A stretch of DNA of 32,000 nucleotides from Candidatus Saccharimonadota bacterium (GTDB lineage: Bacteria; Patescibacteriota; Gracilibacteria; UBA1369; 2-02-FULL-48-14): assembly GCA_965230905.1 (NCBI GenBank), contig OZ246396.1, positions 90,001-122,000 of the forward strand. The letters run 5' to 3'. Position numbers and translations under genes: made by a program. Shown piece by piece: positions 2,025-32,000 of this stretch (position 1 is its first letter; every line of letters starts with the position of its first letter). Below the pieces are notes generated by a model, which saw only the letters and a program-made list of their open reading frames with translations, was not told the DNA's origin and ran no database searches.

Positions 2025-3093
2025 CGTCGCCGTCGCGCACAATGTACTCCTTGCCCTCTAAGCGCATGAGACCTTTTTCGCGCGCCTTCACTTCGCCGTT
2101 GCAGTCCACAAAGTCTTGCCAATTTATAACTTCCGCGCGGATGAAGCCTTTTTCAAAATCCGTGTGAATGACTCCGGCCGCTTGCGGCGCCGTGGAGCCT
2201 TTTTTAATAGTCCACGCTCGCACTTCTTGTTCGCCCGCCGTGAGGTAGGTTTGGAGGCCGAGCAAATCGTAAGCATCACGAATGAGTCGTCGAAGACCGG
2301 TTTCTTTGAGTCCAAGGTCTGCGAGGTAACTCTGCGCTTCTTCTGGGCTGAAGCTCACAAGGTCCGCTTCCACTTTCGCGGAAATGGGAATCACTTTGGC
2401 TTCGGCTGGCAGGTCAAGGGCGCTGCGCAGTTCACTTTCTTGAATGGTCGCGAGTTCTTCCTCCCCCACGTTCACAATGTACATCAGGGGCTTCATGGTG
2501 ATGAGGTGCAGGTCTTGGATGAGGAGTTTTTCTTCGTCGGTGAGCTCCACTTGAATGGCGAGTTTTCCGGTTTCGAGTGCCAATTTGATGCGTTCCAAAA
2601 TCGCGTGGTAAGCAATTTTTTCTTTGTTTCCGCTGCGGGTTTCGCCAAGGGATTTGGCCATGCGTTTTTCCAGTGTTTGAAGGTCCGCCAAAATGAGTTC
2701 GGATTCAATGATTTCGCGGTCACGTTTCGGGTCCACATTGTCGTGCACATGGATCACGTTTCCATCTTTAAAATAACGCACCACTTGCGCGATGGCGTTG
2801 CATTCACGGATGTGAGAAAGGAATTGATTCCCGAGTCCTTCCCCCTGGCTCGCGCCTTTCACAAGCCCGGCCACGTCCACAAATTCCACAATCGCAGGGA
2901 TCACTTTTTTGGTTTGCGTCACTTCTTGGAGCGCGCCGAGGCGGTCATCCGGCACTTCCACCACACCCACATTGGGGTCGATGGTACAGAACGGATAGTT
3001 CGCGGCCTGCGCCGATTGGCTGCGGGTGAGCGCATTGAACAAAGTAGATTTTCCCACATTGGGCAGCCCGACAATAGCGATTTGTAGATTCAT
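1999..3093 (-). CDS. ychF: ribosome-binding ATPase YchF (Obg-like family)
   Basis: 364-aa ORF. P-loop N-terminus MNLQIAIVGLPNVGKSTLFNALT. C-terminal YchF/TGS signature RAWTIKKGSTAPQAAGVIHTDFEKGFIRAEV. Its 3' end overlaps rel by 26 nt (convergent). Confidence 0.95.
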   Translation of the reverse strand: MNLQIAIVGLPNVGKSTLFNALTRSQSAQAANYPFCTIDPNVGVVEVPDDRLGALQEVTQTKKVIPAIVEFVDVAGLVKGASQGEGLGNQFLSHIRECNAIAQVVRYFKDGNVIHVHDNVDPKRDREIIESELILADLQTLEKRMAKSLGETRSGNKEKIAYHAILERIKLALETGKLAIQVELTDEEKLLIQDLHLITMKPLMYIVNVGEEELATIQESELRSALDLPAEAKVIPISAKVEADLVSFSPEEAQSYLADLGLKETGLRRLIRDAYDLLGLQTYLTAGEQEVRAWTIKKGSTAPQAAGVIHTDFEKGFIRAEVINWQDFVDCNGEVKAREKGLMRLEGKEYIVRDGDVMHFRFSS

Positions 3094-3114
3094 GGTTGAG
3101 AAAGTGCGCTCAGT

Positions 3115-3609
3115 CTACTCAAGAGCAGCCAGATTCTCAATACCAAGACGATCCACAATAAAAATGAGGTCTTTACGTCGGATCCATCCTTCAGAAGCTG
3201 CACGGAGTAGCGGCACCTTTCCCAAGGGGAGGAAAAAATCACATGAGCCGGGCCCCCTCCATCCGCTGTGAACCCGCAGCCTACGATCAGCCGGATCCTC
3301 AGGCTCGAAAGGTCTGCCAATAAAAAGACTGCTTTGAATACTTTTTCCAGGAAGCGGTAGGTTTCGTTTTCTTAGTTTCCGTTCTAACCCAACACCCGCT
3401 CGCAATTGCGCGTCCATTGCTTGGAGATTTTCAATCAATGTGGCTACTTCTATACGAACTAATTCCTCGTATTGGTGAATTTCGATCTGGCCGATTTCAG
3501 CCAAGCCTTGATCTGACCAACGGTGAAAAGGTGCTTGAACGCTGAACCGGGCACAATCCTGCTGATGGAAGGTTTCACCGTCACTGGAAAGTTTGAGTAT
3601 TGAGGGCAT
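3115..3609 (-). CDS. hypothetical protein, 164 aa, no family recognised
   Basis: Intact ORF ending 21 nt upstream of the ychF start on the same strand, so probably co-transcribed. I can name no motif. Confidence 0.45.
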   Translation of the reverse strand: MPSILKLSSDGETFHQQDCARFSVQAPFHRWSDQGLAEIGQIEIHQYEELVRIEVATLIENLQAMDAQLRAGVGLERKLRKRNLPLPGKSIQSSLFIGRPFEPEDPADRRLRVHSGWRGPGSCDFFLPLGKVPLLRAASEGWIRRKDLIFIVDRLGIENLAALE

Positions 3610-9558: not shown

Positions 9559-10683
9559 ATGGAACCTCTTGCAGCTAAAATTAGGCCGGCGACTTTGGAC
9601 GCGTATATGGGCCAGGAACACCTGGTGGGCCCGGGCAAACCGCTGCGCGTGGCAATGGAACAGCAACATCGTTTTTCCTTTATTTTGTGGGGGCCGCCGG
9701 GCGTGGGAAAAACCACCTTGGCACGCATGTACGCCAAAAGTTTGGATGCGGAACTCTTTGAGCTTTCGGCGGTTTCGGCCGGCAAGGCGGATATTAAAGC
9801 CATTGTGGACCAGCAGTTTTTTGGACGGCCCAAGGTTTTGTTTTTGGATGAAATCCACCGCTTCAACAAGGCTCAGCAGGATTATTTACTCCCGCACGTG
9901 GAAAGCGGCGAGTTGACGCTGATTGGTGCGACCACGGAGAATCCGAGTTTTGAAATCATTCCGGCGCTGCTCTCCCGCTGCCGCGTGTTTGTGCTAAATT
10001 CGCTGACCGAAAAAGAGATGGCGAAAATTCTGGATCAGACGGGAATTAAGATGAACAAGGAGGCAAAAGAATGGCTCATTCAAATGGCAAACGGCGATGC
10101 ACGTCAGGCGCTCACCTTGGTGGAAAACACTTCGCAGCTCTACGAAAAAGTCACACTGGAAAACTTGAAGAACGCGATGCAATCTAAGTTTTTGCGCTAC
10201 GACAAAAAAGGCGAAGAGCATTTTGATGTGATCAGTGCGTTTATAAAAAGTATGCGCGCCAGCCAACCGGACGCGGCGCTGTATTACATGGCGCGGATGA
10301 TCGGCGGCGGCGAAGATCCTAAATTCCTTGCGCGGCGCATGGTGATTTTTGCGAGTGAAGACATTGGCATGGCTATGCCCACGGCGCTGGTGGTGGCCAA
10401 TGAAGTATTCCGCGCCGTCGAAATCATTGGGCTGCCGGAATGCGCCATCAACCTGGCGCACGGTGTGATTTATCTTTCCCAATGTAAAAAAGACCGCAGC
10501 GTGGTGAATGCACTGGGCCTGGCGATGGCAGATATAAAACTGCACGGCAACTTGCCCGTGCCGCTCAAACTTCGCAACGCACCAACTAAGCTCATGAAAG
10601 GCCTGGGCTACGGCGATGGCTATGAGAAATACAGCAAAGAAGATTTGATGCCGGAGAAACTTAAGGCAAAAAAATATCTGTAA
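9559..10683 (+). CDS. rarA: replication-associated recombination protein A (AAA+ ATPase RarA/MgsA)
   Basis: [22 protein letters not shown], Walker [12 protein letters not shown], Walker [12 protein letters not shown], and a C-terminal MgsA region ([18 protein letters not shown]). A TATACT hexamer (9546-9551) ends 7 nt before the ATG. Confidence 0.9.
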
Positions 10684-13564: not shown

Positions 13565-14404
13565 ATGCAATTGAACGAAAACACCATTTTCATTTTGGAC
13601 TGTGACAACACGCTGTGGCGTTGGATCCAGTATGCAGGTCCTGCTTATAAGGCTATGTGCAAGGTCTTAAGTGGAATTGCCGGGAAAGAATTTCTGGAAA
13701 CTGCCGCAGCAATGAAAACTTTTTATACGAGTGTAGGAACCCTCGAACATGAAGGCCTCGTGCAAGGATTGCAAAAAGCGGGTTTCTTCAAACACCTTCC
13801 TCATTTTAACTTAAGGGAGACCATTTTATTGGCTCAAGCCGCTTTCAGTGAGGAGCGGGATCGTCATTTTAAAGTTTTTGATGGAATAACTGAAATGGTG
13901 CGCGAACTTCAAGCCTTGGACGTGCGGCTACTCCTACTAACCGATGCCACCAGATATCAAGCAATGCGACGGCTGGCACGATCCCGCTTAGAGGGTTTTG
14001 AGAAAATGTACTGCATGCCTGCCCCCGTTTTCGAGCAAATGCCTGAGGATTTTGGCGCTACCGGACGTTTGCCATCCATTCCTTACGAAGAACTTCCTGA
14101 GGAAAAACCACATACCGACCTTGAAAGGATACTTGGATTAACACGGGCAGAAATTCAGGAGCGTGTGGTTATTGCGGGAGATAGTGTTAAGAAAGATGTG
14201 GCGCTTGCGGAGAGATTTGAGTGCCTAGTTGCTCACGCCGCCTACGGCTTGGCCAGTGAAGAAGATATTGACGCCATTCGTGATTTTGCACCAGATGACG
14301 TGGCAAATCGAAACACCGTTACGGCGAGCACGGCAAGTAGCTACCATCGAATGGTGACTGCCAATCACCCTTCTGAAATACTAGCGAAGGTGCGAGCGGC
14401 ATAG
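13565..14404 (+). CDS. HAD-superfamily hydrolase
   Basis: Motif I FILDCDNTLW (DxDxT), motif II LLLLTDA, motif IV GDSVKKDV. Confidence 0.7.
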   Translation: MQLNENTIFILDCDNTLWRWIQYAGPAYKAMCKVLSGIAGKEFLETAAAMKTFYTSVGTLEHEGLVQGLQKAGFFKHLPHFNLRETILLAQAAFSEERDRHFKVFDGITEMVRELQALDVRLLLLTDATRYQAMRRLARSRLEGFEKMYCMPAPVFEQMPEDFGATGRLPSIPYEELPEEKPHTDLERILGLTRAEIQERVVIAGDSVKKDVALAERFECLVAHAAYGLASEEDIDAIRDFAPDDVANRNTVTASTASSYHRMVTANHPSEILAKVRAA

Positions 14405-16767: not shown

Positions 16768-16796
16768 GCCTCTATAGGCTCGTCTTCGACGAAGGA

Positions 16797-27396: not shown

Positions 27397-27900
27397 TTAC
27401 TGCTCCACTTCTGGGAATCCTCCGTACATATTCAGGCTGATTTCTTTGCTGTAAGTGGCGGTGCTGTCCACCAAAGTGAAGGAGATTTCGGTGGCGAGGC
27501 TGTCGCAATCGGGCGTGTCGAAACAAATGTCACCGTTGGGCGGGAAGTAGTAGACTTCCTCGGAGCCAGTGATGGAAAAGTTGCTGTCCAAAGTCACCGT
27601 TTCTAAAATGGAACTGGTGCTGGAATTGTAAGCCAATAAAGTTATTCCGGTGCTGCTTACGGTGAGCAAGTAATATTCGGCCGGGCTTGTATCTGCGATG
27701 AGGAAATTCGTGAGCGAATACGTGCGGGCCTGCTCCAGCACATGCACAATTTGAATCACTTGGTCGTCGAAGTTCGCCTTCAATTGGCTTTTCCCAAAAT
27801 TCACCACCACCGCAACGGACAAAATAGCGACGATCACAACGCAGATGCAAAGTTCAATTAGAGTGAAAGCTGGTTTTCGGCCTGGCAGAAAACTTTTCAT
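27397..27900 (-). CDS. prepilin-type N-terminal cleavage/methylation domain protein (minor pilin/pseudopilin-like)
   Basis: Class III signal MKSFLPGRKPA|FTLIELCICVVIVAILSVAVV, with Glu at +5. A C-terminal Cys pair (CFDTPDC) is typical of a pilin D-region. Confidence 0.8.
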   Translation of the reverse strand: MKSFLPGRKPAFTLIELCICVVIVAILSVAVVVNFGKSQLKANFDDQVIQIVHVLEQARTYSLTNFLIADTSPAEYYLLTVSSTGITLLAYNSSTSSILETVTLDSNFSITGSEEVYYFPPNGDICFDTPDCDSLATEISFTLVDSTATYSKEISLNMYGGFPEVEQ

Positions 27901-27928: not shown

Positions 27929-28558
27929 ATGCGCCACGCCAAACCCGCAGAATCTCTTATTGAAACGATGATCGCCATCACGGTGATTGTCTTGGCAACC
28001 ACGGCGGCTATGTCCGTGCTGCGAACGTCCACGGACGGGAATGAAATCATTGGGAAAAAAGTGGTGGCCATGAATTTGGCGCTGGAGGGTTTTGAGGCAC
28101 TGCGAAACCTGCGCGACACGAATTATTTGTTATTTTCAAGTGACCCGGACGAGTGCTGGAATGCCTTGGATGTGGCTGACGTAGCCGACTGCCCCACCGC
28201 TACGAAGATCGCAGATGGAGAAACTTATTTTTTGACACGGGATTTTGAGGGCACGGCAAATCCTTATTTTGAATGGTATTTGGTGCCCAAAACACTTCCC
28301 ACTCAAGGCTATTTAAGCTTGTTCTCAGTGGACACTGATGGAGACGCCGGCTGGGAATCACAGATGTATGCCTACAGCTCACTCACGGGCGTTGCCGACA
28401 TGAGCGCCATCGCCGCCAACCAGCGCCTATTCCAACGCACCATCACCATAGACTACCCTTCTACTGAATATTACAACGCCACTATTGTAGTTAGCTGGTA
28501 CGACAACTCTGTTTTACGAACGCTTTCCCTAACCCGCAGCATCGGCCATGTTTACTAA
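27929..28558 (+). CDS. PilV/GspI-like minor pilin candidate with a degenerate prepilin motif
   Basis: MRHAKPA|ESLIETMIAITVIVLATTAAMSVL has a short basic leader, a hydrophobic helix and Glu at +5, but Glu rather than Phe at +1. It has a Cys pair (CWNALDVADVADC). Confidence 0.6.
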   Translation: MRHAKPAESLIETMIAITVIVLATTAAMSVLRTSTDGNEIIGKKVVAMNLALEGFEALRNLRDTNYLLFSSDPDECWNALDVADVADCPTATKIADGETYFLTRDFEGTANPYFEWYLVPKTLPTQGYLSLFSVDTDGDAGWESQMYAYSSLTGVADMSAIAANQRLFQRTITIDYPSTEYYNATIVVSWYDNSVLRTLSLTRSIGHVY

Positions 28559-29552
28559 ACGTCGCGCTTTCAGTTTGGTGGAATTGCTCATAACGCTCAC
28601 GATTTTTTCAATGGTTTCCGTGGTGTGCGTGCAACTTCTGGTGAACAGCATGGCGTCCGCACGGCGCATTCAGGCGCAGGTTTTTTTGTACTCGGAAGCC
28701 AACGCACTCATGGACCAACTGGCGCGCGAAGTGGAACGGAGCGCCATTGATTACGAAGCCTATTATTTACGCTATGCTTACGAGACACCGGAAACTGGTT
28801 GGGAAACCACGGACTATGGTTTTTATGGACAAAGTTTTTATCACCCCGGGAACGATGGACTGGAAGGAGGACCCTATGGAAGCAGCGTTGGGGATGTGTA
28901 CGGAGCCGAGTGTGCCGATGGAACGGCCTACCCCGACAATTGTCCGGACGAAACGCCCGACTACGATGATTTGGATTTGGACACCGGCGCGCATCCTTTC
29001 ACCGAAATATATGACTTCGGCTACTCCGATGATGACCCCGATACCATGAACGCTTTTTGCGAAACCACCAGCAGCGTGGACTGCAATGCGTGGTCCGAAA
29101 CGGTGATGCAGGAACTGATTTTGATAAATGGGGCCGGCGACGAACGTACGGTTTTCATTCAAGAACCGCTGGCCGGAAGCAGCAGCGAGTACAGCATTTC
29201 TAAGATGGAACTCAGCGGAACGGATGGCGATTACGATGGCATCGTGGATTCGTGGACTTGTAGCGACCACTACGTCTGCCCCAGTGGAGACGTACCGATG
29301 GAAGACGATTTTGAGCCCATCACGCCCAGCGCGCTGACCATCGACTCTTTCTATATATACATCGCTCCTTTTGAAGATCCCTACCGCGCCTTTGCTGAAG
29401 CGGACGTGCAAATCCAACCCCAAGTTACCATTGTGTTCAAAGCCACTTTGAGCGACGAATACAGCAACCGCCTGCTGGGAACGGTTCCCACCATTACTAT
29501 TCAACGCACCGTTTCGACTGGTGTTTACTCCGAAATTCCTTCTTATGAATAA
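28548..29552 (+). CDS. PilW-like minor pilin candidate
   Basis: MFTKRRA|FSLVELLITLTIFSMVSVV prepilin motif. Very acidic globular part with three Cys pairs. Overlaps the upstream gene by 11 nt. Confidence 0.7.
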   Translation: MFTKRRAFSLVELLITLTIFSMVSVVCVQLLVNSMASARRIQAQVFLYSEANALMDQLAREVERSAIDYEAYYLRYAYETPETGWETTDYGFYGQSFYHPGNDGLEGGPYGSSVGDVYGAECADGTAYPDNCPDETPDYDDLDLDTGAHPFTEIYDFGYSDDDPDTMNAFCETTSSVDCNAWSETVMQELILINGAGDERTVFIQEPLAGSSSEYSISKMELSGTDGDYDGIVDSWTCSDHYVCPSGDVPMEDDFEPITPSALTIDSFYIYIAPFEDPYRAFAEADVQIQPQVTIVFKATLSDEYSNRLLGTVPTITIQRTVSTGVYSEIPSYE

Positions 29553-29586: not shown

Positions 29587-29632
29587 GCTTCGCTACTGCT
29601 TACTGTCATCCAACGCTGACGACAGTAAATGC

Positions 29633-29661
29633 TAGACAAAAAGACTGCGCTTAGGGATAGT
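29633..29661 (+). promoter_or_regulatory. candidate promoter TAGACA-17 nt-GATAGT upstream of the TcB-like ORF
   Basis: Hexamers at 29633-29638 and 29656-29661. The ATG is 23 nt downstream, the same spacing class as rpmG, xth, leuS and rpsO. Confidence 0.3.
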
Positions 29662-29684: not shown

Positions 29685-32000
29685 ATGCTTAAGCCACAAA
29701 TGCGAGTTCTGACCGGAGCGCTTTTAAGTGTTTTTCTCTTCGTAACGCTGGCGCCGACCACGTTTGCGGATGCCACCAACCGTAATGAAGGGTTTTACGA
29801 TCAGACTTTTGAAATCGGGAACCGTATCTCCTCTAAACAAGGATCTCAAACCGGATCGTCATCGGGGGCTTATGTTTTTTCTTTACCGCTGAATGTACCG
29901 GCGGGAAGAAATGGACTCCAACCTTCCCTTTCTCTCAGCTACAACAGCCAGGGCGGCGAGGTGAACAGCTTTTATGGATACGGCTGGTCTTTGGACCTGC
30001 CCTCCATCAGCCGCATGAATAAAACCGGACTGAACAACTTGTATTCCGAAACGAACTTCAGCTCGTCCCTCAGCGGTGAATTGGTTTCTATTAGTGGTAG
30101 TCCTTATGGGGACTATGGCGCCAAAGTCGAGAGTGGAGCTTATTTGGACTATGTCTTCAATTCCTCAGATGATTCGTGGACGGTCACCGATAAATCCGGC
30201 ACGGTCTACACCTTTGGTTCAACGGCGGACAGCCGCCAAGACAATCCCTCGGATTCCACTGAAATCTATAAATGGATGCTGGAAGAAATTCGTGACACGA
30301 ACGACAACTATCTGCGCTATGAGTACTTTAAAGAAAATGGCCAAATCTATCCCGAGAGCATCAGCTACACTGGGAACGGCGCCACCGATGGCATCTTCCT
30401 CGTTGAATTCGGTCTGGAAAGTCGGAGTGATCCCAGTAGTTTTTACAGCACGGGTTTTGAAGTTCAAACCGATTATCGCGTCAGTGGCATTGAGGTTTCA
30501 ATCGATGGGACTTTGCGAAAAAGTTATGGGCTCACTTATACAACTCCGGACAATACCACACGTTCACTCCTGAAGTCCGTCACCGAATCGGGGGTGAGTG
30601 AAACGGGTGTTACTACCACCTTACCGGCCACTACTTTTGATTATGCTCAATCGAGTAAGGGCTGGAGCAGTGTCAACGGGTACACTATCCCCGTATATTT
30701 TTACTTTTCTGGTGACCATTCCGATAAAGGAAATGATGTTGCAGATGTGAATGGCGATGGACTTTTGGATATTATAGACAGCGGTCTCTACTCAGGCTCT
30801 ACCGGCGTTGACAGCGTTTACCTCAACAACGGCGATGGAAGTGGCTGGAGTGAAGACAGCAGCTATACAGTGGGAGTTCGTTTTTGGGACAACGGCAAAA
30901 ATCAAATGCGAAACACTCGCATGACGGATATCAATGGAGACGGCTTTAGCGATATCCTTTATGGAGCCATGGACTCCACCACCGACGCGAGAAAAACTTA
31001 TATTTTTGATGAAGACACTTCCACCTGGGTTGAGGACAGCGCTTACTCACTGCCGATTCGCTTCAACGATGGATACCTTGATGATTTGGGCGTTCGTCTT
31101 TTGGATGTAAACGGTGATGGCTATTCAGATTATGTGCAATCGCTCATCGACAGTAGCGGCGCTCAGCAAAGCTTGTATCTTTTTGACCCAGAAACCCAAA
31201 CTTGGAACGTCGAGACCAGTTATTCCATTCCTGTCGCATTCAATGACCGGTCCAGTAATACTGACGAAGGAGTGAGTTTGGGAGAAGTGAATGGAGATGG
31301 CTTGGTGGATATCATCAAGTCCAGATACGATGGAAGCACTCAGCAAGCGGTTTATCTAAACAACGGCGATGGAACCGGTTGGACTCAAGATACCGGGTAT
31401 TCCATTCCCGTTTATTTCTGGGAAAGTAGTGGAATCCTGTCTACCGTCGCTCAACTGATGGACGTGGACGGTGATCGTTTGGCAGATATTGTGCACTCCG
31501 ATGCGAGCCATTCGGATGTTTACATAAACCGAGGGAATGGAACCGGATGGGCCAAAGATACCGCTTATACGGTACCTGTTGATTTTGCGCTCTCTTATGG
31601 CAGCCCTGAGGGGGTTCAAAGCATGGACGTGGATGGAGATAATTTTGTAGATTTTGTGCAATCTAAACAGAGTGGAGGCACCACTACTCAGCGGGTTTAT
31701 GTGAGCAATGCAAGTCCTGAGCTTTTGGAAACCGTACACTCTTACAAAGGTTCCACGACCACGGTCAGCTATTCCCCCTCTACCGAGTTCGATAATCCCA
31801 ATCTTCCCTTTGCCATGAACTTGGTGGACTCTATTACCGTAGACGACGGCCTGGGCGATAGTAGCACCACTACATTTGACTACGAAGGCGGCGCGTATCT
31901 TTATGAAGATGAGCTCAACCGACAATTCGCCGGCTTTTCTAGCATCACTAAGACGGAAGATGGTCGAGAGACCGAGACTTTTTATGAGCAAGACGATTTG
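29685..32000 (+). CDS. secreted SpvB/TcB-like protein, N-terminal 772 aa of a probable Rhs/Tc-type encapsulation toxin (3' partial, runs off the window)
   Basis: This ORF is not in the supplied track because it has no stop in the window. Hand translation from ATG 29685 (in-frame TAG at 29658) to 32000 shows no stop. Signal peptide: MLKPQMRVLTGALLSVFLFVTLAPTTFA|D. SpvB N-domain signature: SLPLNVPAGRNGLQPSLSLSYNSQGG..GYGWSLDLPSISR (29880-30014). Six DxNGDGxxD-type repeats occur every 165-183 nt between 30744 and 31652. A TcdB-mid-N-like segment follows: LLETVHSYKGSTTTVSY...FDYEGGAYLYEDELNRQFAGFSSI. Confidence 0.9.
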   Translation, partial: MLKPQMRVLTGALLSVFLFVTLAPTTFADATNRNEGFYDQTFEIGNRISSKQGSQTGSSSGAYVFSLPLNVPAGRNGLQPSLSLSYNSQGGEVNSFYGYGWSLDLPSISRMNKTGLNNLYSETNFSSSLSGELVSISGSPYGDYGAKVESGAYLDYVFNSSDDSWTVTDKSGTVYTFGSTADSRQDNPSDSTEIYKWMLEEIRDTNDNYLRYEYFKENGQIYPESISYTGNGATDGIFLVEFGLESRSDPSSFYSTGFEVQTDYRVSGIEVSIDGTLRKSYGLTYTTPDNTTRSLLKSVTESGVSETGVTTTLPATTFDYAQSSKGWSSVNGYTIPVYFYFSGDHSDKGNDVADVNGDGLLDIIDSGLYSGSTGVDSVYLNNGDGSGWSEDSSYTVGVRFWDNGKNQMRNTRMTDINGDGFSDILYGAMDSTTDARKTYIFDEDTSTWVEDSAYSLPIRFNDGYLDDLGVRLLDVNGDGYSDYVQSLIDSSGAQQSLYLFDPETQTWNVETSYSIPVAFNDRSSNTDEGVSLGEVNGDGLVDIIKSRYDGSTQQAVYLNNGDGTGWTQDTGYSIPVYFWESSGILSTVAQLMDVDGDRLADIVHSDASHSDVYINRGNGTGWAKDTAYTVPVDFALSYGSPEGVQSMDVDGDNFVDFVQSKQSGGTTTQRVYVSNASPELLETVHSYKGSTTTVSYSPSTEFDNPNLPFAMNLVDSITVDDGLGDSSTTTFDYEGGAYLYEDELNRQFAGFSSITKTEDGRETETFYEQDDL

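Follow-up and report, generated by a model that had tools for sequence, protein, structure and literature searches.

Polymorphic toxins of the TcdB/TcaC type were described in 2012 by Zhang, de Souza, Anantharaman, Iyer and Aravind (Biol Direct 7:18; PMC3482391), and the 'export pathway' proposed for them is uncharacterised (PMC3482391). The phyletic list compiled at that time predates genomes of the candidate phyla radiation (CPR) and is without Patescibacteria (PMC3482391), and no dedicated study of Rhs/SpvB toxins in Patescibacteria or Saccharibacteria was found in the literature. The TcB-TcC pair of the insecticidal ABC (Tc) toxins has been studied structurally; its propeller has pseudo six-fold symmetry and serves as the TcA-binding gate (PMC11435725), and Tc toxins leave the cell by lysis (PMC10847048). 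Here we describe a toxin gene at the right end of a 32,000-nucleotide stretch of DNA from a Candidatus Saccharimonadota bacterium (assembly GCA_965230905.1, contig OZ246396.1, positions 90,001 to 122,000 of the forward strand), referred to below as the window.

With a probability of about 0.8, the gene encodes a Sec-exported, single-chain SpvB-propeller ('TcdB/TcaC-type') Rhs cocoon toxin accompanied by an immunity gene. The class has been in print since 2012 and the protein is already domain-annotated at NCBI; the locus is an intact new member of a known toxin class. A preliminary description of the window, made from its sequence, had named two candidate families. The SpvB-Rhs polymorphic toxin fits, and the TcB subunit of an ABC toxin does not, given a leader, a single chain, no midC domain and no TcA nearby. 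Read in this way, the gene cut by the window edge belongs to an intact toxin-immunity cassette, and is neither a fragment nor part of an insecticidal ABC toxin.

An open-ended frame and its completion

The frame that opens at ATG 29685 runs to position 32000 on the forward strand without a stop on translation, giving the first 772 codons, or the 5' 41%, of a gene of 1,882 codons. It is missing from the list of open reading frames (ORFs) made for the window because ORFs running off the source sequence are not listed, and the preliminary description was right to claim it. Beyond the window, 1,110 further codons continue in frame to an end at the equivalent of window coordinate 35333 (position 16786 of locus L082). 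This 3' part of the gene was read from L082, on ENA ERZ1292638 NODE_1 (1,307,106 nt), which was reached through exact look-up of a neighboring 334-aa protein and is identical to the window across a 13,453-nt overlap; a 61-mer from the window end had no exact match in genome or metagenome contig collections. About 34 kb of the 1.3-Mb contig, around the toxin gene, were inspected.

Databases differ on the start. NCBI record MEK9160051.1, 'SpvB/TcaC N-terminal domain-containing protein [Patescibacteria group bacterium]', has 1882 aa and begins at ATG 29685; the ENA gene call begins at ATG 29700 (Met6) and yields 1,877 aa. Because M1 is invariant in the alignment with relatives, comparison favors the start at 29685. 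A promoter-like site (TAGACA, 17 nt, GATAGT; 29633..29661, + strand), which is a consensus match only, lies 24 nt 5' of that codon.

The notion that this is a pseudogene fragment or an assembly artefact is scarcely credible. Such genes do break, as illustrated by the orthologous gene of locus L001, interrupted at codon 1234 by an inversion; here, in its own genome, all 1,882 codons can be read through and no domain is damaged, and no inverted repeats were found around the gene. The toxin protein is recorded from NCBI, ENA and Logan sources, and the adjacent pilin-like protein occurs on five contigs in ENA and Logan assemblies, which argues against an artefact. An early end, a failed SpvB/TcdB profile match, and a stop or frameshift had been named beforehand as fatal to the proposal, and none of these was found.

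The N-terminal half and its predicted fold

The protein begins with a predicted Sec signal peptide at residues 1-28 (29685..29768, + strand), in which basic residues and a hydrophobic core (maximum 15-residue Kyte-Doolittle mean 2.43) lead to a T-F-A site; the sequence MLKPQMRVLTGALLSVFLFVTLAPTTFA is followed by DA. The signal-like features that the preliminary description had pointed out are present, and cleavage after TFA is a by-eye, rule-of-thumb reading. Signal-like N-termini recur in 23/23 full-length relatives examined.

After a linker (residues 29-56) of low confidence in the structural model comes the SpvB/TcaC N-terminal domain, residues 59-222 (29859..30350, + strand), matched by Pfam SpvB PF03534 at 1.2e-22 with 80.9 bits against a cutoff of 22. 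The SpvB motif cited previously is also present, and sequence matches of this region in the Protein Data Bank (PDB) are TcdB1, TcdB2, YenB and SpvB. In the model, the beta-rich shell portion extends to about residue 335.

Residues 350-685 (30732..31739, + strand) form a six-bladed FG-GAP/integrin-like beta-propeller, as judged from Pfam, loops and model together. All six of the calcium-binding loops claimed for it are there, one D/E-x-N/D-G-D-x-x-x-D loop per blade at residues 354, 415, 474, 534, 593 and 648, with spacings of 61, 59, 60, 59 and 55 residues. Pfam returns FG-GAP_3 in five stretches (4e-14) and FG-GAP (2.6e-11) above the gathering score; the match of the calcium-loop blades to integrin sequences is not significant (E 0.15), and sequence alignment to TcdB1/YenB is limited to the last blade and the midN junction. 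A TcdB_toxin_midN-like segment follows at residues 643-765 (31611..31979, + strand; Pfam 3.7e-18), where the chain returns to the shell, in agreement with the TcdB-middle/N-like segment proposed at the outset.

Within the propeller, blade 1 (30816-30889) and blade 4 (31350-31423) share 72% DNA identity over 74 nt at a spacing of 534 nt, or three blades, which hints that the six-blade propeller may have arisen through duplication of a three-blade unit.

An AlphaFold2 model of the window fragment, built on a 23-sequence alignment, reached a pLDDT of 82.5 and a pTM of 0.80. It has residues 5-21 as a helix and 22-56 as a disordered linker, followed by the beta-rich SpvB portion, then the propeller with six four-stranded blades at residues 350-685, and afterwards extended beta structure. 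Structure prediction for residues 1-772 had been proposed as a check, and the model superposes on TcB over the whole fragment: the top Foldseek matches in the PDB are TcdB2-TccC3, TcdB1 and YenB (E 9e-35 to 8e-29, TMq 0.60-0.69), with the isolated SpvB N-domain ranking after the TcB structures and type VI secretion system (T6SS) Rhs proteins reaching TMq <=0.21. By itself, the propeller also resembles PVL-type lectins (fungal, GlcNAc-binding) and CRTAC1.

These matches raise the question of whether the protein could be a natural fusion of TcB and TcC of an ABC toxin, whose propeller would dock a TcA pentamer encoded elsewhere in the genome, with TcA then delivering the payload by injection into a cell, eukaryotic or other. 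Its best whole-fragment structural matches are indeed TcB subunits, the Pfam families that mark TcB, SpvB and TcdB_midN, are both present, and the propeller of Tc toxins is the element that binds and gates TcA (PMC11435725); moreover, the inspected part of the contig is small. We nevertheless regard such a fusion as very unlikely. The signal-like N-terminus, shared with all the full-length relatives examined, is at odds with release by lysis, the route given for Tc toxins (PMC10847048). In agreement with the preliminary description, which saw no TcA-like partner upstream, no TcA-sized ORF or TcA-type Pfam domain was found in 29.7 kb upstream or 4.2 kb downstream, nor any TcA in flanks of up to 10 kb at 21 related loci; the neighbors met in this search encode housekeeping, helicase, PBP, MCP and laminin-G proteins. 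The suggestion that the propeller is a docking module for TcA is therefore unsupported for this protein, which has a leader and no TcA nearby. The C-terminal half, described next, speaks against the fusion as well.

RHS shell, Rhs core and predicted cleavage

The full protein bears out the expectation that an RHS/YD shell, an autoprotease-type core motif and a variable tip would lie beyond the window. RHS_repeat matches in eight stretches (5e-23) and YD_repeat at 4e-24, together describing about 950 residues of RHS/YD shell, so that the SpvB, FG-GAP, midN and RHS/YD profile searches that had been recommended all match. In sequence, the C-terminal shell and core are nearest to T6SS RhsA and Tse5 (E 5e-22 and 5e-16); that the shell is closer to these than to TccC3 again argues against a TcB-TcC fusion.

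The Rhs-associated core occupies residues 1630-1717 (TIGR03696, 6e-17) and is followed by a PT-TG pre-toxin module at residues 1733-1780 (2e-6). Within the core, ARWYDGDIGRFGSLD ends at D1681 and is followed by P, and the PxxxxDPxG-type motif NPINLVDPSGE spans residues 1708-1718, with its aspartate at 1714 and VPEW directly after E1718. Alignment places the core on the region where RhsA (7q97) is cleaved, with an insertion of 10 residues. The two aspartates, D1681 and D1714, stand 33 residues apart, compared with 22 for the Tse15 cleavage aspartates D1369 and D1391 (PDB entry title); given the 10-residue insertion, the wider spacing fits. The predicted product of autoproteolysis is a payload of 164 residues, V1719-D1882, with a mass of 18 kDa. 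Its small size, set against the ~30 kDa of Tc hypervariable regions (PMC11435725), is a further point against the fusion with TcC, as is the lack of TcdB_midC.

The toxin tip

The final ~100 residues had no confident family match, and the toxin tip proper comprises ~80 residues (1799-1882; L082 16532-16783). A word-indexed search found eight tail relatives that share a C-terminal block of ~80 residues, ...GVFRSADxxRQFRMTxxDLxDPKQGPHVHFE...ENSHV..., which in one of the eight stands directly after the Rhs-core end motif. An exhaustive profile search extended this to at least 1,058 representative clusters with the tip, 504 of them with E values of 1e-10 or lower. In every case the block stands at the very C-terminal end of its carriers, which range from 76 to 1,932 aa; among ten sampled carriers, eight are RHS-repeat proteins, some of non-SpvB types, and no tip tested in these ten matched a Pfam toxin model. 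In L001, the closest relative, a different tip stands behind the same core.

Across the family, R1836, Q1843, F1844, R1845 and H1859 are invariant, and H1861, E1863, E1874, N1875 and H1877 nearly so. A model of the tail is confident for the last ~75 residues only, where a helix packs on a five-stranded sheet. The stretch PH-x-H-x-E resembles part of the pattern of Ntox47 (D, [HRK], RT, E, D, PH, H, [DE], R), a predicted RNase family of the BECR fold. From this resemblance, weak as it is, and the invariant Arg/His/Glu pattern, our guess is that the tip may be a nuclease.

An immunity-type gene behind the tip

A 118-aa ORF (MEK9160050.1; L082 16792-17148) starts 5 nt after the toxin stop codon, as anticipated when a small downstream immunity ORF was proposed for the region beyond the window. 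With the ORF directly 3' of the tip in four unrelated contigs (L084, L085, L087 and L088) it shares 35-41% identity (E 1e-12 to 2e-21). Because homologs follow the same tip in these four contigs, the 118-aa ORF is likely to encode the immunity protein of the tip. The protein type has no Pfam or NCBIfam match. A 124-aa ORF with about four predicted transmembrane helices (MEK9160049.1; L082 17141-17515) shares its first 8 nt with the end of the immunity ORF. In a related genome (L090) the whole three-gene cassette is kept, with 71% identity for the toxin C-terminus, 82% for a 115-aa ORF and 68% for the membrane protein (2823-3176); the counterpart of the 124-aa ORF is absent 3' of distant tip homologs. 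The tip and its small downstream ORF are thereby linked in five independent contexts (L084, L085, L087, L088 and L090), a recurrence of the sort by which comparative analysis usually recognizes toxin-immunity pairs. Tip and linked ~110-aa immunity-type protein look like unnamed polymorphic toxin and immunity families.

Conservation of the immunity gene points to a prokaryotic target, which tells against injection through TcA as a component of an ABC toxin. For the cocoon toxin, a second prokaryote is the most likely target, be it a competitor or, this bacterium being a probable episymbiont, its host cell.

A perfect 29-nt direct repeat (ACTGTCATCCAACGCTGACGACAGTAAAT) has its left copy at 29602..29630 (+ strand), where it occurs once in the window; a match was seen in 0/100 shuffles. 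The right copy (L082 17498-17526, equivalent to window coordinate 36045-36073) lies 6,443 nt downstream, beyond the window, and overlaps the last codons of the 124-aa ORF. The pair brackets exactly the toxin, 118-aa and 124-aa genes, and a promoter-like TAGACA-type element stands behind each copy, that 3' of the right copy reading TAGACA...TAGAAT. There is no integrase or transposase inside the bracketed cassette. The repeats could indicate that the cassette was inserted as one piece, and would then be an att-like site or a target duplication.

Tip and immunity genes also occur as short stand-alone genes in L088 (1685-4637), beside an IS110-family transposase and an Ntox28 cassette, and in L087 (2713-5894) a tip and immunity cassette lies 3' of a 712-aa RHS ORF. 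Both look like arrays of orphan toxin/immunity cassettes.

Relatives and genomic neighborhood

The closest proteins come mostly from metagenome-assembled genomes (MAGs) of Patescibacteria. In species-representative genomes, 80 related loci include many Saccharibacteria, and also Omnitrophota, several Proteobacteria and archaea (Woesearchaeota, Methanosarcinales); these were recovered with a 7-sequence alignment, the 23-sequence one having no sufficiently conserved stretch. Complete relatives are mostly single ORFs of ~1,900-3,700 aa. A first listing of homologs, which had lengths of <=1,336 aa and did not include the protein's own cluster, had suggested short or split genes, an idea dropped once the genome loci showed mostly single ORFs. 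Four annotated relatives are single ORFs of ~2,000-2,400 aa with SpvB, FG-GAP and RHS repeats, TcdB_midN in 2/4, and an Rhs core that lies 180-200 residues from the C-terminus. The family seems to be enriched in ultra-small bacterial (CPR) and archaeal (DPANN) lineages.

Relatives in archaeal MAGs are found at L016, L017, L029 and L040 (Woesearchaeota, archaeon GW2011_AR15 and a Methanosarcinales-labelled MAG); those at L016 and L017 are single ORFs of ~1,700-1,900 aa with signal-like N-termini. Another relative (P0006, on a JGI 3300056388 contig), 39% identical, looks split: a 1,259-aa SpvB/FG-GAP/RHS gene comes first, and behind it, with gaps of only 10-25 nt, stand a 1,047-aa fn3-rich gene, a 1,121-aa RHS/TEN_YD-shell gene and a 256-aa ORF. 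This may be a true multi-gene variant, or a product of recoded or erroneous stops.

The closest relative protein (P0001) stops inside its YD repeats, 92 nt from a contig end, because of the inversion in L001 (ENA ERZ27247322 k141_487355). There, a 59-nt inverted repeat, 92% complementary (9759-9817 and 13634-13692) and encoding '...SETSFGVWRYTYDKNN', flanks 3.8 kb of DNA in which the promoter and codons 1-1234 of the orthologous gene are found. The 3' half, which aligns to residues 1214-1718 at 65% identity, lies inverted upstream, where it carries a different tip together with small ORFs of its own, among them one for an Imm50 homolog. In this orientation, then, the gene is split. The arrangement may be fixed, or it may represent a real invertible switch that turns the gene on and off or exchanges cassettes.

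The DNA of the window is chromosomal, with housekeeping genes (RelA/SpoT, YchF, ThyA, DHFR, MgsA, PNPase, CorA and LeuRS). Directly 5' of the toxin gene lie three pilin-like genes, at 27397-27900 (- strand), 27929-28558 (+ strand) and 28548-29552 (+ strand); the last encodes the 334-aa protein and has a weak match to Verru_Chthon cassette protein C. Prepilin N-methylation motifs are found in 2/3 of them. The order LeuRS-pilin-pilin-pilin-toxin is kept in L001, a 63%-identical relative, with ~7 kb (AbiEii, CreD, Imm50 and the inverted RHS half) between the pilins and the toxin gene. SLH- and GEVED-domain proteins are encoded downstream.

Such neighbors invite another explanation, namely that the protein serves an episymbiont mainly for adhesion at the surface or attachment to a host, through a teneurin-like use of YD shell and propeller, and that its tail is not a deployed toxin. 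Patescibacteria are generally held to live attached to host cells. The surface or pilus proteins on both sides (pilin-like upstream; SLH and GEVED downstream), the integrin-type calcium loops and the likeness of the propeller to PVL-type lectins and CRTAC1 would all suit an adhesin. We consider it quite unlikely all the same. The Rhs core is intact with both aspartates present, and the tip is a mobile C-terminal module on many RHS carriers. Its tight linkage to a small downstream ORF in five contexts is a hallmark of toxin-immunity pairs for which an adhesin would have no need.

Proposed mechanism and significance

For the exported cocoon toxin, the following course of events can be envisioned. 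Sec would export the precursor, with the signal cleaved after A28; SpvB and RHS strands would close into a shell, on which the propeller forms the lid, as in TcB. D1681 and D1714 would cut after E1718, and the 164-residue tail would stay enclosed by the shell. Once a target cell is touched, the propeller would bind or gate and the tail would be released into that cell, while the 118-aa protein would protect the producer and its kin against the tip.

Patescibacteria, and the DPANN archaea in which relatives are found, have no outer membrane. Together with the absence of T6SS and TcA from the regions read, this leads to a more tentative proposal, for which we would give clearly less than even odds: that the cocoon is a self-sufficient, contact-dependent delivery device in which the calcium-binding propeller, a homolog of the gate that docks TcA in Tc toxins, acts as receptor-binding and gating element towards the host or competitor cell, and that the tip is a new catalytic toxin family paired with a new immunity family. 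If so, the propeller gate of TcB would be older than its recruitment by TcA, and proteins of this kind would be candidates for deciding which hosts an episymbiont can use or kill.

Several points weigh against the main reading, that of an exported cocoon toxin. TcdB_toxin_midC (PF12255), among the profiles recommended in the preliminary description, gave no hit when the full protein was scanned with Pfam, with the threshold relaxed as far as E 1. The tail model has no fold match in the PDB (best Foldseek E 0.74), and a search of PDB structures with the tip profile gave noise only. Ntox47 (PF15540) matched the tip at E 0.1 and 13 bits (cutoff 25), over profile positions 79-112, in 1/9 members, so that it was rejected as an assignment and serves as a lead only; fold comparison gives it no support. 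Export, autoproteolysis, toxicity and immunity are functions that we infer from families. With ~34 kb of the contig inspected, a TcA may be encoded elsewhere in the genome, and the reading requires the payload to cross a target envelope with no help from TcA, T6SS or a comparable machine.

Among ultra-small episymbionts, SpvB-propeller-Rhs toxins seem to be widespread: Patescibacteria and Saccharibacteria dominate the best matches, and Woesearchaeota have relatives. Tip and immunity partner, both from sizeable families for which Pfam has no model, should be easily tested by experiment.

Comparison with known systems

Among described systems, the TcdB/TcaC-type toxins have the same order of parts: signal peptide, SpvB, integrin-like propeller, RHS repeats, variable toxin and downstream immunity gene (PMC3482391). 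Every element of that definition has a predicted counterpart here. Differences from the published type lie in the tip and immunity protein, which match no named Pfam family, and in the absence of an N-terminal ZU5 or other releasing peptidase.

The TcB-TcC pairs (TcdB2-TccC3, TcdB1-TccC2, YenB-YenC; PDB 4o9x, 6h6e, 6l7i, 4igl) share the fold order over residues 57-772 (E ~1e-34, TMq up to 0.69), the SpvB and TcdB_midN profiles, and an RHS shell with a two-aspartate autoprotease core ahead of the payload. They differ in being built from two chains, TcB of ~1,470 and TcC of ~950 aa, rather than a single chain of 1,882 aa, and in having no leader: the SpvB motif starts near residue 32 in the TcB chains that have been solved, compared with residue 57 here behind a Sec-type leader. 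Canonical FG-GAP calcium loops in the blades, the 18-kDa payload and the immunity gene further set the present protein apart. Since TcdB_midC is absent, no tcA lies nearby (tcA, and tcC, within <10 kb being the neighborhood criterion of Song et al. 2021; PMC7861908) and a Sec-type leader is present, the protein does not appear to be a TcB subunit of an ABC toxin.

T6SS Rhs effectors (RhsA 7q97, Tse5 8cp6, Tse15 8uy4) have the same two-aspartate C-terminal cleavage and toxin encapsulation, whereas their N-termini are PAAR- or VgrG-linked, an N-terminal plug replaces SpvB and propeller, and there is no signal peptide.

WapA of Bacillus subtilis is a Sec-exported Rhs/YD toxin of a Gram-positive bacterium. 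WapA of Streptococcus suis (PMC12704120) combines a signal peptide, a YD/RHS shell, an Rhs core, a variable toxin and an adjacent immunity gene, as does the locus described here. WapA-type toxins work without T6SS or TcA and in cells without an outer membrane, as the present toxin is predicted to do. They differ in carrying cell-wall-binding N-terminal repeats, in the place of which this protein has SpvB and propeller with no wall-anchoring domain seen. By this comparison of described features, WapA-type toxins are the most likely functional analogue of the cocoon toxin.

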